64,000 nt of DNA from Clostridia bacterium (GTDB lineage Bacteria > Bacillota > Clostridia > UBA1212 > UBA1255): the NCBI GenBank assembly GCA_017620915.1, contig JAFZSK010000051.1, positions 24,215-88,214 on the forward strand. Direction: 5' to 3'. Under the pieces are notes generated by a model. That model was not told where the DNA came from. It ran no database searches and saw nothing but the letters and a program-made list of their open reading frames with translations. Below are positions 2,313 to 25,249 of the stretch, piece after piece. Each line of letters opens with the position of its first letter. The stretch's first letter is position 1. The position numbers and the translations under genes were made by a program.

Positions 2313-2820
2313 CGGCATCGCCCGTCGCGGCGTTGTCAGCGGCGGGCTTGCCGCGGTACAGCAGCAGTTTGCGCATGCCGAAATTCCACACGAACACCAC
2401 CACGGTGGCAACAATTTTGCCGATGATATAGTACTTGTCCGCGTTGAGCCAGGCGCCGAGCACCTGCCGCGGACCGAGCACCTTTTCGAACAGCATGATG
2501 ATCAGATTGTTGAGTCCCAGCCCGATCAGGCTGATGACGGCAAACACCGCAAATTCCACGCCGCGCTTTTTGGTGTTGAGGCCGCGGAACGCCCAGAACG
2601 TGGACAACAGATAATTCGTTACCAGCCCCAATATATACGCGATGGTGGCGGCAATGACGGTATGGTCCCGCAGTCCAAGAAACTCTTTCATCACGACCAG
2701 CGAGCCCATGTCCACCAGGGTGGCAACGACTCCCACCACCAGCGACCGCGCCAGCTGCACTTTTCCTTCGGCGGGCGGATCGATCACGTATTTTCTGAAT
2801 AATTTATTTATCGCACTCAT
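2293..2820 (-). CDS. GtrA family membrane protein (polysaccharide synthesis associated)
   Basis: 175 aa with four predicted TM helices. YVIxG and FxxVGxxxTxxD-like GtrA motifs are present. Confidence 0.65.
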   Translation of the reverse strand: MSAINKLFRKYVIDPPAEGKVQLARSLVVGVVATLVDMGSLVVMKEFLGLRDHTVIAATIAYILGLVTNYLLSTFWAFRGLNTKKRGVEFAVFAVISLIGLGLNNLIIMLFEKVLGPRQVLGAWLNADKYYIIGKIVATVVVFVWNFGMRKLLLYRGKPAADNAATGDAVNPPAP

Positions 2821-2923
2821 TTTTCTGCGTTTCCTTCTGTTTGATGGATGTCAACACTTTGGCCTTGCATGCTGACCGCTGTGCCGATATATTACCACTT
2901 TTCGGGCCGCGGGGCAAGATGGG

Positions 2924-2965
2924 TAAGTTGTAAGTTGTAAGTTACAAGTTATAAGTTTTAAGTTG
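2924..2965. repeat. Tandem heptamer repeat YAAGTTN x6
   Basis: taagttg taagttg taagtta caagtta taagttt taagttg. Preceded by a GC-rich ccgcgggg block. Same unit and orientation as the array at 3721. Confidence 0.85.
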
Positions 2966-3494
2966 TGGTGCGGCCTCCTTACCAAGCGCTTGATCCGGCC
3001 GCGAATATCACGGGTTGGCTGAAATCAGTCACCATATCGATGAAGTTTCGCTCGTTTTTCGGGTTTGAATTCCGCTTGGACATAGCGAATCGCCGTTTTT
3101 CGGTTTTTGCTATGTCGGTTTTACCTGTTCTGGCTCATTCTTGCCACCTTATGCAATGTGAAAAACATAGCAATTCTTTGAATTTGGAGTTTTGCTATGT
3201 TTTTCATGAAAGTAGATCTCGATATTTCGAGCGTTGAAGGCGCCCGAAACGGATTAATATCTTATTGCTCACAAGGGTGTCTCGGAATTGTCGATTTATG
3301 TCGAAACATGTTGAAATTTGTCGAACTATTTTGCTTCCATTTCAGCTCCGAACGGTGGTAAAATCCACGGTGCACGCCGGTACTCCGGTTCTTTTACGGA
3401 GGCGGTTCCCTCAGGCTGACTTGTTGATTTATAGTCGAGAGGGTCGGTCGGTTGACATCTCTCTCAATCTGAAAAGGTGAGGAGGTGGGACGTT

Positions 3495-3599
3495 ATGATC
3501 ACACATAATGAGCTTTACGCTCTGGTCTCGCTGCTAATTGCGTTTGCCAGTCTTGTCATCTACATCACTCGTGGTGGAAATGGCTCAAAAAAAGACTAA
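3495..3599 (+). CDS. Small hydrophobic peptide (34 aa), type I toxin / holin-like toxin candidate; absent from the ORF track
   Basis: MITHNELYALVSLLIAFASLVIYITRGGNGSKKD: one TM helix with a charged C-tail. Strong SD GGAGGTG sits 7 nt upstream. It lies in an AT-rich cassette. Confidence 0.5.
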   Translation: MITHNELYALVSLLIAFASLVIYITRGGNGSKKD

Positions 3600-3681
3600 T
3601 CGCCTGCTCTTTGGTTAGGGATTAGGCGATTAGTCTGATTCATAGCCTGAGGGCAACCGCTATCGGCGTGCTCCTTTGACG
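3587..3681 (-). ncRNA. Putative cis-antisense sRNA convergent on the small toxin ORF (type I antitoxin-like)
   Basis: A minus-strand sigma-70 promoter is read directly: TTGACG(3711-3716)-17 nt-TATAAT(3688-3693). A minus-strand hairpin (arms 3593-3605 / 3624-3636) follows, then a T7 run (plus A-run 3587-3593) overlapping the last codons of the peptide ORF. Confidence 0.45.
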
Positions 3682-3687
3682 CTTTGA

Positions 3688-3716
3688 ATTATACCACATT
3701 GCGGCAAAAACGTCAA
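3688..3716 (-). promoter_or_regulatory. Sigma-70 promoter driving the antisense sRNA
   Basis: Minus strand reads TTGACG-17-TATAAT. Confidence 0.5.
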
Positions 3717-3720
3717 TAAA

Positions 3721-3845
3721 CAAGTTGTAAGTTACAAGTTACAAGTTACAAGTTTTAAGTTACAAGTTAAGGGGCGGCATTCGCCGCGGATCTCTTGGCT
3801 CCGCGAAGCGAACTTATAACTTATAACTTAAAACTTTAAACTAAA
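3721..3845. repeat. Composite element 1: 7 heptamers YAAGTTN, a GC-rich hairpin core (3770-3810, contains CCGCGGATCTC), then 5 inverted heptamers
   Basis: Read directly. Arms caagttg/taagtta ... versus aacttat/aacttaa. The core is ggcggcattcgccgcggatctcttggctccgcgaagcg, with two internal palindromes. Confidence 0.85.
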
Positions 3846-3855
3846 ATATGTGTTC

Positions 3856-3884
3856 TTGCCATTTTTCTTCCGGCATTATATAAT
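3856..3884 (+). promoter_or_regulatory. Sigma-70 promoter for the downstream lipoprotein gene
   Basis: TTGCCA-17 nt-TATAAT immediately after element 1. This implies the real start is ATG 3937 rather than the upstream in-frame ATGs. Confidence 0.55.
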
Positions 3885-3936
3885 GCATTCGGAAACAATA
3901 ATTGAATTTCATCTGATCCGCACGGAGGAACTTGGA

Positions 3937-5886
3937 ATGAGGAAATTGACGGGAGAAGGATTTGAGGAACGGAACAGGGCGGGCAGGAGATCGTCCGCGC
4001 TGGCAGTATGCGCTCTGATGCTGCTCACCGCGTTCGGCTGCAGACCGGGCAACGGTAAACCGGGGGACGGACCCGCGGCGCCCACAGAGAACACGCAGAC
4101 AATTACGGAGGAGCTGGAAACCATGGAACTGTACGGAAACGGCTACAATAACAACATGATCGTCGGCTTTGACGAATACGGCCGCACCGTGACCGCGGCG
4201 GCAGGTAAAAAAGACAAGCGCGACGTCGGTATCTTCTACTTTCTGTGGCTCGGGCAGCCGCAATCCAAAGACATCTACGACGTATCCAAACTGCTGGAGC
4301 AGTACGGCAAGGACATGGTGTTCCACGAAGAGGGCGGCAGCATCAGCCCCAACGGTCAGGCGCACTGGTGGGCAGAACCGCTGTACGGCTACTACAACAG
4401 CACCGACAAATGGGTCATCCGCAAACACATGGAAATGCTCACCGAGGCGGGCGTGGATTTCCTGATTTTCGACACTACCAACTGCGTGCTGTATGACGAA
4501 GTCGCGAAGAAAATAATGCGGATGAGCCAGGAGCTCCGGGACGAAGGCTGGGACGCGCCGCAGGTATGTTTCTATACGCATTCGCGTTCCATTGACACCA
4601 TCAAAAACATCTACAATAACTTCTATAAAAACGGCAATTATCCGGATTCCTGGTACCGCATTGACGGCCGCCCGATGATCATCGGCTACACCAGCGCCAA
4701 GCTGGATAAAAAAGAAGCGCGCAGCCGGGGCGACGATTCGTATGATCCCGAAGACCTGCCCCAGGATCTGCAGGACTTTTTCTATGTCAAAGAAGCGTGC
4801 TGGCCCAACGATTTCCACAACGCCAACTCCTTCCCGTACACCGAATGGACCTACCCGCAGCCGCTCAACGGCAACACGATGAACGTGTCCGTTGCCACCC
4901 ATCCGATGGTGCCGTTCAGCTTTTCATTGACCCATGAAAACTGGTGCAACTGGGGGCGCGGCTACGACGTCAACACCGGCGAAAACAAGCATGAAGACAT
5001 CTACCGTGGCACGTTTTTCCAATCCGAATGGGAGACCGTGTTTTCATCCGACCCGCAGCCCGAGATCCTGATGGTCACCGGCTGGAACGAATGGATCGCG
5101 TACAAACAGCCCTACGGCGGCGAGTACATGCTCTGCGACAACGTGGACATGGAATACTCCCGCGACATCGAACCAATGCAGGGCGGCTACGAAGACGCGT
5201 ATTTCATTCAGATGCTCATGAACATCCGCAAATACAAGTACAACGATTCCGACGGCGTGATCGCGGACAACGTTTACAAGACTATTGATCTCAGCGGCAA
5301 CGACGCGCAGTGGGACGAAGTTAAGGCCGTCTACCGCCACGTGGGCACGGTCAACGACAAACGCAACGCGTACGGCGGCGCTATGACGGTGCACTATTCG
5401 GTGCCTGCTGCGGACAACAACATTCTCTCTGTTAAACTCACCAACGACGCGGAGAACCTGTACTTCCGCATCGAATGCGCGGATCCGGTAAAGGTGACGG
5501 ACAACGCAAACTGGATGAACCTGTTCATCGGCACCGGCACGCCGGCGCAAAAAGGCTGGGAATCCTATGAATACGTGATCGGCCGCCGCCACGACACCGC
5601 GTCGGGTACCGCTACCGTTGAGCAGCTGCGCGCGGATTTCACCGGCAAACACGCGGGCGACGCCGCGTACGCCGTGAGCGGCAATACCGTGCTCTACAGT
5701 GTGCCGCTGGCTTCGCTGGGCATTGAAACCGGCAGCGCCGCCTCCGCGTTCCGCATTTATTTCAAAGTGGCGGACGGTGTAGAAGGCGCGGAAGAGATCA
5801 TGAACTACTATGTCTCCGGGCGCTGTCTGCCCATGGGCCGCCTGAGCTACGAGTACAAATTCAAACTGCCGGATACGGCAGACTGA
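3937..5886 (+). CDS. Secreted lipoprotein, putative glycoside hydrolase-like TIM-barrel protein
   Basis: The lipobox is LTAFGC after a basic N-terminus, with SD GGAGG upstream. The body (FYFLWLGQPQ, HWWAEPLYGYYNSTDKW, GVDFLIFDTTN) resembles GH99/GH71-like secreted hydrolases. Family assignment is uncertain. Confidence 0.55.
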   Translation: MRKLTGEGFEERNRAGRRSSALAVCALMLLTAFGCRPGNGKPGDGPAAPTENTQTITEELETMELYGNGYNNNMIVGFDEYGRTVTAAAGKKDKRDVGIFYFLWLGQPQSKDIYDVSKLLEQYGKDMVFHEEGGSISPNGQAHWWAEPLYGYYNSTDKWVIRKHMEMLTEAGVDFLIFDTTNCVLYDEVAKKIMRMSQELRDEGWDAPQVCFYTHSRSIDTIKNIYNNFYKNGNYPDSWYRIDGRPMIIGYTSAKLDKKEARSRGDDSYDPEDLPQDLQDFFYVKEACWPNDFHNANSFPYTEWTYPQPLNGNTMNVSVATHPMVPFSFSLTHENWCNWGRGYDVNTGENKHEDIYRGTFFQSEWETVFSSDPQPEILMVTGWNEWIAYKQPYGGEYMLCDNVDMEYSRDIEPMQGGYEDAYFIQMLMNIRKYKYNDSDGVIADNVYKTIDLSGNDAQWDEVKAVYRHVGTVNDKRNAYGGAMTVHYSVPAADNNILSVKLTNDAENLYFRIECADPVKVTDNANWMNLFIGTGTPAQKGWESYEYVIGRRHDTASGTATVEQLRADFTGKHAGDAAYAVSGNTVLYSVPLASLGIETGSAASAFRIYFKVADGVEGAEEIMNYYVSGRCLPMGRLSYEYKFKLPDTAD

Positions 5887-16094: not shown

Positions 16095-16183
16095 GGAGAA
16101 GTACCCAAGTAGGTCGAAGGGGACGGTTTGCTAAACCGTTAGGTCGGGTTACCGGCGCCGGGGTTCGAATCCCCGCTTCTCCG
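16095..16183 (+). tRNA. tRNA-Ser (anticodon GCT)
   Basis: Cloverleaf read by hand: acceptor GGAGAAG/CTTCTCC, anticodon loop TTGCTAA, long variable arm, T-loop GGTTCGAATCC, discriminator G. No encoded CCA. Confidence 0.85.

Positions 16184-25166: not shown

Positions 25167-25249
<83 letters not shown>

Follow-up and report, generated by a model that had tools for sequence, protein, structure and literature searches.

A candidate type I toxin-antitoxin family of rumen Clostridia with the layout of TxpA/RatA and BsrG/SR4

In the type I toxin-antitoxin systems TxpA/RatA and BsrG/SR4 of Bacillus subtilis, the antisense RNA is encoded on the 3' side of the toxin gene, is transcribed convergently and overlaps the end of the toxin ORF (PMC8594479). 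The sense/antisense duplex of the B. subtilis systems is cut by RNase III, and the published Gram-positive families share the locus layout described below (both PMC6562991, PMC3834814, PMC8594479). A different arrangement is found in the proteobacterial systems hok/Sok (Escherichia coli plasmid R1) and aapA1/IsoA1 (Helicobacter pylori), where the antisense RNA lies fully inside the mRNA, at its 5' or translation-initiation region. In these the full-length toxin mRNA is translationally inert (PMC8594479, PMC5416894), and pairing of the Shine-Dalgarno sequence (SD) with an anti-SD and the long-distance 5'-3' interaction rank among the key determinants in T1TAdb (PMC8594479). The Fst/RNAII (par) system has no ORF overlap; its two RNAs share a bidirectional terminator and carry 5' direct repeats that are complementary at the initiation region. 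For Clostridioides difficile modules, including CD2517.1/RCd8, long complementarity suggests control by degradation, and their toxins are hydrophobic at the N-terminus and rich in Lys at the C-terminus (PMC6563280).

The locus examined here lies near one end of a 64,000-nt stretch of DNA from a Clostridia bacterium (the window). Its sequence organisation makes it a well-supported candidate for an undescribed type I toxin-antitoxin family of rumen Clostridia with the TxpA/BsrG layout. We put the probability that it is a type I toxin-antitoxin-like module, chromosomal and of the 3'-overlapping kind known from Gram-positive bacteria, with a putative toxin and a putative antitoxin, at roughly two in three. 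A first-pass annotation had proposed a candidate type I system, and this reading holds up when about 23 related loci are compared; the sequence contains all that it described, namely the ORF at 3495-3599, its SD, the antisense promoter and the hairpin with U7 terminator. The features are as follows.

3289-3325, plus strand: four tandem Spo0A-box-like repeats (tgtcgat, TGTCGAA, tgttgaa, TGTCGAA), 7 bp each with 3-bp spacers
3356-3364, plus strand: extended -10 element TGgTAAAAT of the predicted sense (toxin) promoter
3372-3417, plus strand: 5' arm of a predicted long-range closing helix, beginning at the predicted transcription start and containing a local hairpin (3381-3399)
3437-3443, plus strand: GAGAGGG, candidate anti-anti-SD, an alternative partner of the anti-SD
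3451-3491, plus strand: predicted SD-sequestering hairpin, in which the anti-SD CAUCUCUCUCA (3456-3466) pairs with GGUGAGGAGGUG (3477-3488), containing GGAGG
3495-3599, plus strand: gene for a 34-aa peptide, the putative toxin, MITHNELYALVSLLIAFASLVIYITRGGNGSKKD, from ATG at 3495 to TAA at 3597-3599
3587-3636, minus strand: intrinsic terminator of the antisense RNA, with a stem of 3635-3624 paired with 3605-3594, then U7 (3593-3587)
3587-3683, minus strand: predicted cis-antisense RNA of about 95-97 nt, the putative antitoxin, with ends placed from promoter and terminator
3644-3671, plus strand: 3' arm of the closing helix, in the predicted 3' UTR of the toxin mRNA and wholly within the antisense-complementary region
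3688-3716, minus strand: antisense promoter TTGACG-17-(TG)gTATAAT, with TG before the -10

The related loci come from ruminant-gut metagenomes and from Clostridia and Ruminococcus MAGs; carrier MAGs include RGIG5989, RGIG10101 and RUG12823. All have in common an architecture of about 430 bp that comprises the sense promoter, leader, peptide gene, antisense promoter and antisense terminator. The family is rare, with 14 clusters among 5.8 billion proteins; a scan of genome contigs with the peptide pattern gave 52 matches, 0 of them confirmed. The genomic surroundings differ from locus to locus and look chromosomal rather than mobile. None of the examined neighbourhoods has the look of a prophage or plasmid, unlike many known systems, and one contig (L020) carries three tandem copies. 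With Rfam at gathering thresholds the full window gave two tRNAs and nothing else, including no model of a type I antitoxin or toxin mRNA; at a permissive E-value, positions 2500-4500 gave two chance-level matches only, IS128 and Lambda_thermo (E about 0.3).

The peptide is of the size and hydrophobicity of type I toxins (<60 aa with a predicted transmembrane helix). As the first-pass annotation had described, it has a near-consensus SD (GGAGG at 3481-3485, 9 nt ahead of the ATG) and a single hydrophobic segment, with a peak over a 17-aa window at residues 9-25 (mean Kyte-Doolittle 2.45). By hmmsearch and profile search 17 variants were collected, with a common M-V-T-H-x-E-L-Y-A and a conserved hydrophobic core. 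The family peptides are 29-34 aa long and consist of the motif MVTHxELYALI, one transmembrane helix and a short polar tail; the helix is kept in 17/17 (mean Kyte-Doolittle 2.45-2.94). A 40-aa form from a GTG at 3477 was rejected, since GGAGG falls inside it and the ATG is invariant.

The Nei-Gojobori pN/pS ratio does not discriminate as a coding test (0.42 for the true frame, 0.45 for the +1 control frame), and coding was therefore judged from frame openness, codon-position counts and an in-frame indel. Frame 0 alone is open in all 18 distinct sequences, the other two frames having at least one stop in 18/18 and 17/18, and this single open frame persists over about 40% nucleotide divergence. 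Variable columns number 17, 8 and 20 at the three codon positions, and L013 and L014 share an in-frame deletion of 15 nt. ATG and GGAGG are invariant among the relatives. The N-terminal motif is kept despite synonymous codon changes (GTA/GTC/GTT, CTT/CTC/CTG, TAC/TAT and GCT/GCC).

On the opposite strand, a scan finds the near-perfect antisense promoter reported by the first-pass annotation, at 3716-3688 with 11 of 12 matches. Wherever the region is present (18/18 loci) it scores 9-11 of 12; the spacer is 17 bp long, in one case 18 bp, and drifts in sequence between conserved hexamers. In the main group a constant 85-90 nt separate promoter and stop codon; in L013 the distance is 68 nt. Antisense promoter and terminator keep their positions even in loci where the sequence around them has diverged. 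Promoter-like sites in the region show no excess over shuffled sequence (2 found, 1.6 expected), and the promoter is considered more than chance because of the quality of the match and its conservation across relatives. It was also considered as the promoter of the GtrA-like gene downstream on the minus strand; this was rejected, because a strong terminator intervenes and other loci lack the gene there.

The terminator, previously given as a 13-bp stem followed by U7 over the ORF end, has a stem of 12 bp, or 13 if the pair A3593-U3636 is included, and a loop of 18 nt, owing to which the terminator scan overlooked it. A 98-nt minus-strand RNA folds into this terminator at -36.6 kcal/mol (z = -4.6), and promoter and terminator together predict an RNA of 95-97 nt, in agreement with the earlier estimate of about 95 nt. 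In every locus the stem is conserved and the loop variable. The Lys-Lys codons of the peptide, read in antisense, give the U-tract. In variants of 31 aa, AAA has become TAA with AAAAGACTAATCG kept, and AAAAGACTAATCG is thus constrained at the RNA level. The predicted RNA overlaps the last 13 nt of the ORF (3587-3599) and the 3' UTR; its complementarity is perfect across the end of the ORF, the 3' stem-loop and the 3' arm of the predicted closing helix. The antisense RNA gene expected of a type I system is thus represented here at the level of sequence signals, which are kept in 18/18 loci.

The toxin mRNA would have a leader of about 124 nt, within which a hairpin sequesters the ribosome binding site. 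Plus-strand RNA from 3360 to 3685 has a predicted fold of -136 kcal/mol (z = -8.1). Across the alignment the helix of the SD hairpin holds 54 G.U cells and 7 A.C cells, and the SD has a probability of being unpaired of at most 0.07 in 6/8 members. For the candidate anti-anti-SD, RNAalifold pairs columns 95-101 with 120-126; in that alignment 4 sequences have A-U in place of G-C at the pair 97-124. Both elements of a translation-blocking fold, SD/anti-SD pairing and a 5'-3' long-distance interaction, are predicted in every member. A relay of antisense binding to the SD through the freed 5' arm was considered and set aside: partition functions with the target blocked showed no consistent change, and in silico the SD was paired in all states, target blocked or not, in 6/8 members.

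The predicted 5'-3' closing helix, with its 3' arm inside the antisense target, is a new feature. A helix of 24-31 bp appears in the minimum-energy fold of every full-length plus-strand RNA. The covariation counted on the loci alignment A5 is modest and exceeds the controls slightly: 84.8% of cells are paired, as against 40-46% in the slid controls, and both sides have changed in 16 cells. The helices hardly vary within the main group, and L013 and L014 align poorly. Folds of individual sequences and a matrix of cognate and non-cognate duplexes were used in its place. In that matrix cognate arms reach -44 to -60 kcal/mol, compared with -18 to -33 for shuffled arms and -21 to -42 for pairs across subfamilies. 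Mismatches in the closing helix, read on the plus strand, are 24 G.U against 2 A.C. With the 54:7 ratio of the SD hairpin, this excess of G.U over A.C indicates that selection acts on the RNA of the plus strand. At the locus a terminator is not evident on that strand, and inclusion of the 3' arm in the mRNA is a prediction. The 17-nt arm motif was matched twice in viral contigs, both times by chance inside coding regions.

The extended -10 of the sense promoter had been placed at about 3353. The element is present and conserved in relatives, its hexamer being TAAAAT, TATAAT, TAGAAT or TACAAT in all loci; its position is 3356-3364, and transcription is predicted to start at about 3371. The -35 is weak, with 2-4 of 6 matches across loci and none good at 17 bp; TTGCTT (3331-3336) lies 22 bp from the -10. 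Upstream, 3-5 tandem TGTCGAA motifs stand at the same positions and in the same orientation in 16/20 loci. Of those in the window two are perfect and two have one mismatch; they follow a 10-bp period at about -83, -73, -63 and -53 relative to the start of the mRNA 5' arm. Core and tandem 3-bp spacing are those of the 0A box (PMC3485338, PMC2731898), so that at least one 0A box near the promoter, as in the Spo0A regulon, is present as a sequence match. Because the boxes lie 5' of a promoter that lacks a -35, activation is more plausible than repression. A scan of 10 window ORFs found neither spo0A nor any sporulation gene. A toxin promoter carrying the motif of a global stress or developmental regulator is also known from tisB, symE and dinQ (PMC6562991); the motif there is the LexA box, and here it is the Spo0A 0A box in 3-5 copies with 3-bp spacers. 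Like the closing helix, the 0A-box array is a new feature, and both are absent from the first-pass annotation.

The first-pass annotation saw a resemblance to the Hol-Tox family and advised an HMM search against type I toxin families; the resemblance is statistically not established, and no member reached the threshold of any curated toxin family. The window peptide matched no family in Pfam or NCBIfam, and Hol_Tox (PF16935) gave no match at E up to 10. Among 17 relatives Hol_Tox is the most frequent weak Pfam match (7/17, best E = 0.014), always below its gathering threshold of 23.3 bits. The top weak NCBIfam match, PepG1 (NF041589), occurs in 4/17 members below the cut-off (best E = 0.0026), the window peptide having none, and the Fst model had no NCBIfam match. 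With hhalign, the family profile compared with a profile of real TxpA, BsrG, BsrE and BsrH sequences carrying PF16935 gave a probability of 11.8% and E = 0.0025 over 19 columns. The best weak family matches are all type I toxins or holins.

By analogy of layout, the closest systems would be TxpA/RatA and SR4/BsrG. The analogy to RatA/TxpA drawn in the first-pass annotation holds, the predicted antisense RNA (3683-3587) overlapping the 3' end of the mRNA and the end of the ORF; the analogy to RNAII/Fst drawn beside it is poor. Like the peptide here, TxpA, BsrG, BsrE and BsrH are 27-59 aa long and combine a polar motif at the N-terminus with a single transmembrane helix and a tail that is Lys-rich or polar. 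The four B. subtilis pairs (TxpA/RatA, BsrG/SR4, BsrE/SR5 and BsrH/as-BsrH) also share with this locus a convergent antisense RNA of about 100 nt over the mRNA 3' end and the ORF end, a partly sequestered SD, and the loop of the antisense terminator as the likely first contact. Unlike them, the present family belongs to rumen Clostridia rather than Bacilli, has no visible prophage context, and carries a predicted 24-31-bp helix between the extreme 5' end of the mRNA and the 3' UTR, its 3' arm inside the antisense target, and a 0A-box array at the toxin promoter. SprG/SprF (PepG1) of Staphylococcus aureus, which is related to TxpA, is likewise a 3'-overlapping type I system, with no sequence relationship to this locus at the RNA level. 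C. difficile modules share the class Clostridia, convergent overlap and long complementarity; they differ in toxins of 50-53 aa, in mostly prophage or CRISPR-adjacent locations and in SigB-type promoters, and no search made found sequence similarity.

With hok/Sok and aapA1/IsoA1 the locus shares an mRNA closed by 5'-3' interaction and an occluded SD. The predicted fold-back is of this kind, but the predicted antisense RNA lies at the 3' end; its target is the 3' arm of the closing helix, and a local hairpin apart from that helix masks the SD. Unlike in Fst/RNAII, the predicted antisense RNA extends over the ORF end, the two RNAs resemble each other in their 5' domains in the same sense and are not complementary there, and a hairpin followed by U7 exists on the minus strand only, the plus strand reading UGAUUCAU.

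From these features we infer how the module might work. A weak sense promoter, perhaps activator-dependent, would start the mRNA near 3371; the leader hairpin would lock GGAGG, and the 5' end would pair with the 3' UTR (3372-3417 with 3644-3671), closing the whole mRNA. The 34-aa, one-helix peptide is presumed to act on the membrane. The strong minus-strand promoter would make an RNA of about 95 nt, ending at the hairpin and U7 over the last four codons, probably in excess. This RNA would pair with the 3' region of the mRNA, perhaps nucleating at a single-stranded CUCUUUG tail or at loops, and would displace the mRNA 5' arm, to which its own 5' domain is near-identical in sequence. RNase III may then cut the long duplex and so destroy the toxin mRNA. 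Toxin synthesis would need more sense transcription, possibly through Spo0A~P, and the mRNA would also have to evade the antisense RNA and the sequestration of its SD. The full scheme is a tentative and somewhat doubtful proposal: sporulation or stationary phase would gate a type I toxin through Spo0A~P bound to the tandem 0A boxes, and the antisense RNA would mimic the mRNA 5' end and displace the 5' arm from a toehold, joining a hok-like fold-back and a TxpA-like 3' antisense in one mechanism.

Among the small one-helix proteins of Firmicutes many act as regulators and not as toxins, and the sense/antisense pair could be real with a peptide that is a non-toxic small membrane protein of developmental role (e.g., in sporulation or stationary phase), silenced in growth by constitutive antisense RNA and activated by Spo0A~P. 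The tandem 0A-type boxes 5' of a -35-less promoter in 16/20 loci (PMC3485338, PMC2731898) and the chromosomal neighbourhoods would fit such a role. We regard it as unlikely: the sequestered SD, closed mRNA, much stronger antisense promoter and ORF-end overlap, together with tandem multiplication (L020) and scattered genomic sites, form the hallmark set of type I toxins (PMC8594479), and the weak profile matches go to toxins and holins.

That the plus strand is a structured non-coding RNA of about 300 nt, its ORF incidental, is very improbable. The stability of the fold, UTRs that in close relatives vary less than the ORF's first half, and the indecisive pN/pS would agree with it; the lack of an Rfam match, the invariant ATG and GGAGG, the one open frame with its in-frame indel, the synonymous changes in the N-terminal motif and the hydrophobic helix of 17/17 variants argue for a coding gene. 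It is scarcely credible that the inverted repeat 3372-3417/3644-3671 represents terminal inverted repeats of a MITE-like element rather than an RNA helix. Such an element might explain the unrelated genomic sites, the tandem triplet and the joint change of both arms in L013 and L014. Conservation, however, runs past both arms (through both -10 and -35 boxes and the 0A boxes), one arm carries a hairpin insertion of 20-29 nt, the arms begin at both predicted transcription starts, and the bias to G.U mismatches is not favoured by a DNA-level repeat.

A large homology search found most clostridial species to be without relatives of known type I toxins (PMC6563280). The candidate type I module described here adds a new family with clear limits, drawn from uncultured rumen Clostridia and offering about 23 natural variants to compare; compact at about 430 bp, it could also become a counter-selection or regulatory RNA device for anaerobes. 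Two of its features lend themselves directly to testing: the predicted targeting by the antisense RNA of one arm of the helix that closes the mRNA from 5' to 3' end, and the 0A-box array at the toxin promoter. If confirmed, the array would link the sporulation master regulator to a type I toxin, much as LexA is linked to tisB, symE and dinQ.

Comparative evidence, in the form of conservation across a family, supports the candidate type I toxin-antitoxin system proposed in the first-pass annotation, and the observation behind that proposal is confirmed. As judged from its sequence, the locus fits best as a new family inside the known type I toxin-antitoxin kind, with a putative function. Its parts in the window are the following.

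3289-3325: four 7-bp repeats (tgtcgat, TGTCGAA, tgttgaa, TGTCGAA) with 3-bp spacers, hence a 10-bp period
3356-3364, forward: extended -10 TGgTAAAAT of the sense promoter, present as claimed but not at ~3353
3372-3417 and 3644-3671, forward: 5' and 3' arms of the predicted toxin mRNA
3481-3485, forward: GGAGG Shine-Dalgarno (SD) sequence, 9 nt 5' of the ATG
3495-3599, forward: 34-aa ORF, ATG to TAA, translating as MITHNELYALVSLLIAFASLVIYITRGGNGSKKD
3716-3688, reverse: antisense promoter TTGACG-17-TATAAT, 11/12 matches in a promoter scan, TG preceding the -10
3635-3587, reverse: terminator, stem 3635-3624 with 3605-3594, then U7 at 3593-3587

The ORF, its SD, the antisense promoter and the terminator thus stand as first described.

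Relatives of the peptide are few. A word-indexed protein search returned two near-identical 34-aa peptides, and hmmsearch of 1.84 billion cluster representatives together with a profile search gave a small family of 14 clusters, none with a Pfam annotation. About 23 loci were collected from the peptide-encoding contigs, from two JGI loci and by scanning GTDB genomes with a DNA pattern. All are from ruminant-gut metagenomes or MAGs; named carriers are two Clostridia bacterium genomes, RGIG5989 from sheep omasum and RGIG10101 from yak rumen, and uncultured Ruminococcus sp. RUG12823. Gene neighbours vary with the locus (GH99-like and M32 peptidase; HerA and FNT transporter; two-component system; LytTR; AraC; FMN reductase), and none of the loci whose flanking genes were inspected had a phage-like or plasmid-like neighbourhood. 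One contig, L020, carries the entire module three times in tandem with a 563-bp period (554-658, 1117-1221, 1680-1784). Copies a and c are identical across 460 nt; most differences in copy b fall in the terminator loop and at two residues of the peptide tail.

The consensus M-V-T-H-x-E-L-Y-A-[LF] is common to 17 peptide variants, all of which keep a hydrophobic core at residues 9-25. Frame 0 is the only frame open throughout 18 distinct sequences. Variable columns number 17, 8 and 20 at the three codon positions, and the divergent subfamily, L013 and L014, has a 15-nt in-frame deletion. The pN/pS of the ORF is 0.42, which does not improve on the +1 control frame. The stop-codon region has a dual use, since AAA AAA (Lys-Lys) GAC TAA TCGCC is the complement of the antisense terminator U-tract and stem. 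In 31-aa variants, found in several lineages among loci L015-L019 and L021-L023, AAA has become TAA but AAAAGACTAATCG is kept, which indicates constraint at the RNA level. The C-terminus is evolutionarily unstable in other ways: a 1-nt deletion in the A-run of L008 (about 3085-3100) extends the peptide to 42 aa, and loss of the stop codon in L011 (3001-3141) extends it to 46 aa. The terminator DNA beneath is preserved in all cases.

Promoter-like sites in the region are no more numerous than in shuffles, so the case for the antisense promoter depends on site quality and conservation. It scores 9-11 of 12 in 18/18 loci holding the region, with a spacer of 17 bp (18 bp once) whose sequence differs between loci. 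In the main group 85-90 nt separate the antisense -10 from the stop codon; in L013 the figure is 68 nt. The 98-nt minus-strand RNA folds into the terminator hairpin (-36.6 kcal/mol, z = -4.6); its stem is conserved, and its loop varies in almost all lineages, even between L020 copies a and b.

On the plus strand, the SD is paired in a hairpin (CAUCUCUCUC with GGUGAGGAGGUG in the window, UUCUCCUCC with GGAGGAGG in L013). A GAGAGGG segment farther upstream is a possible alternative anti-SD partner, and in that helix pair 97-124 is A-U instead of G-C in four sequences. The RNA from 3360 to 3685 has a predicted fold of -136 kcal/mol (z = -8.1) in which the 5' arm pairs with the 3' arm. The minimum-energy fold contains 24-31 such long-range pairs in every full-length family member, including L013 and L014, whose arms are wholly different in sequence yet paired (AGAAAGAGUUACC...UGCUCCUU with AAGGAGCA...GGUAACUCUUUCU). 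Duplex energies are -44 to -60 kcal/mol for cognate arms, -18 to -33 for shuffled 3' arms and -21 to -42 between subfamilies. Covariation counted from the alignment is weak because the main-group arms are almost invariant. An unlikely alternative is that the arms are a terminal inverted repeat at the DNA level. Non-Watson-Crick cells argue against this, with G.U exceeding A.C by 24 to 2 in the long-range helix; together with the 54 to 7 in the SD hairpin, this excess is consistent with selection on the plus-strand RNA.

Among known systems, the layout is the same as in the Gram-positive 3'-overlap families (PMC8594479). The Fst/RNAII organisation, offered earlier as a model, does not fit in a defining feature, and neither does that of hok/AapA. 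Pfam Hol_Tox is present in each of TxpA, BsrG, BsrE and BsrH; none of the present peptides reaches its threshold, with weak matches in 7/17 (best E = 0.014), and hhalign of the two groups gives 11.8% probability. NCBIfam PepG1 and PHROG holin 4237 match weakly in 4/17 (best E = 0.0026) and 9/17 (best E = 9e-4). Since compositional bias readily affects similarity scores of short hydrophobic peptides, a Hol-Tox-like format is accepted and demonstrated membership is not claimed. Rfam gave no match to the locus; the window's only matches at gathering thresholds are tRNA genes at 16095-16183 and 25167-25239 (forward).

In the proposed mechanism, a strong antisense promoter would be set against a weak, regulated sense promoter. 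The toxin mRNA would have its SD masked and be closed by the 5'-3' helix, giving stability and protecting both ends. The antisense RNA would pair perfectly over ~95 nt, from the end of the ORF through the 3' stem-loop to the 3' arm. As this target takes in the 3' arm, the antisense 5' domain almost duplicates the mRNA 5' arm (GGAGCACGCCGAUAGCGGUUGCCCUCAGGCU versus GUGCACGCCGG...GCGGUUCCCUCAGGCU), and the two must compete for one partner. A short conserved tail immediately 3' of the arm, CUCUUUG or CUUUAG, complements the predicted unpaired antisense 5' end and is a possible toehold. The example of SR4 suggests that the variable terminator loop may make first contact and confer specificity between paralogues. 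Pairing would open the closing helix and form an RNase III substrate, as do the duplexes of TxpA/RatA, BsrG/SR4 and BsrE/SR5 (PMC6562991, PMC3834814). The in-silico change in SD exposure with antisense bound is inconsistent, so control by degradation is favoured.

No plus-strand terminator is evident upstream of 3720-3846, where inverted heptamer repeats form a long AU-rich hairpin with a GC-rich core (-39.5 kcal/mol, z = -4.8) that may end the toxin mRNA. Such intergenic arrays of GTAAGTT, ACAAGTT and the complement AACTTAT lie at 1781-1814, 2923-2966, 3720-3769 (forward) and 3811-3846 (inverted). Related loci have similar arrays of other units, for example GCAAGTT flanking the element inverted in L009 and AGAGTTC in L011. 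Upstream of the element are two inverted pairs, ACATAGC(G/A)A...TTTGCTATGT, at 3080-3115 and 3165-3200, 85 bp apart; the close relative L001 has one, and they could be an operator. Downstream, a second near-consensus promoter (TTGCCA-17-TATAAT, 3856-3884, forward) lies by the start of a 678-aa ORF (3850-5886), whose L001 homologue has a weak GH99 Pfam match. G+C is 44% in the ~1-kb intergenic region holding the element (2821-3849), 47% in the element and 57% in the window.

The extended -10 of the sense promoter is conserved across the family, the -35 scores poorly (2-4 of 6), and the conserved 5' arm begins 6-9 nt past the -10, at the predicted transcription start. The repeats upstream resemble Spo0A boxes. 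The core box is TGTCGAA in B. subtilis and C. difficile alike (PMC3485338); boxes 3 bp apart are bound by Spo0A~P dimers, and the variant TGTtGAA is also documented as functional (PMC2731898). A review of B. subtilis covers LexA-controlled type I toxins and no Spo0A-controlled one (PMC6562991). The array occurs once in the 64-kb window, and in 16/20 loci it stands at -53, -63, -73 and -83 in constant orientation. Up to five boxes occur in L018 and three perfect ones in L012; the only box of L013 and of L014 is at -38, and the array is missing from L009 and L020. Perfect TGTCGAA/TTCGACA heptamers number 19 in the window against ~6 expected from a rough base-composition estimate; those other than the element's two have a scattered distribution, perhaps a result of codon usage. 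The box-like array and the missing -35 suggest activation by Spo0A~P; a scan of 10 window ORFs turned up neither spo0A nor any other sporulation gene. In the window a -35-like hexamer, TTGCTT (3331-3336), sits 22 bp from the -10, and the Spo0A-activated spoIIG promoter likewise has a 22-bp gap. The predicted features of interest in this family are thus an antisense RNA aimed at a fold-back arm and a Spo0A-box array at the toxin promoter.
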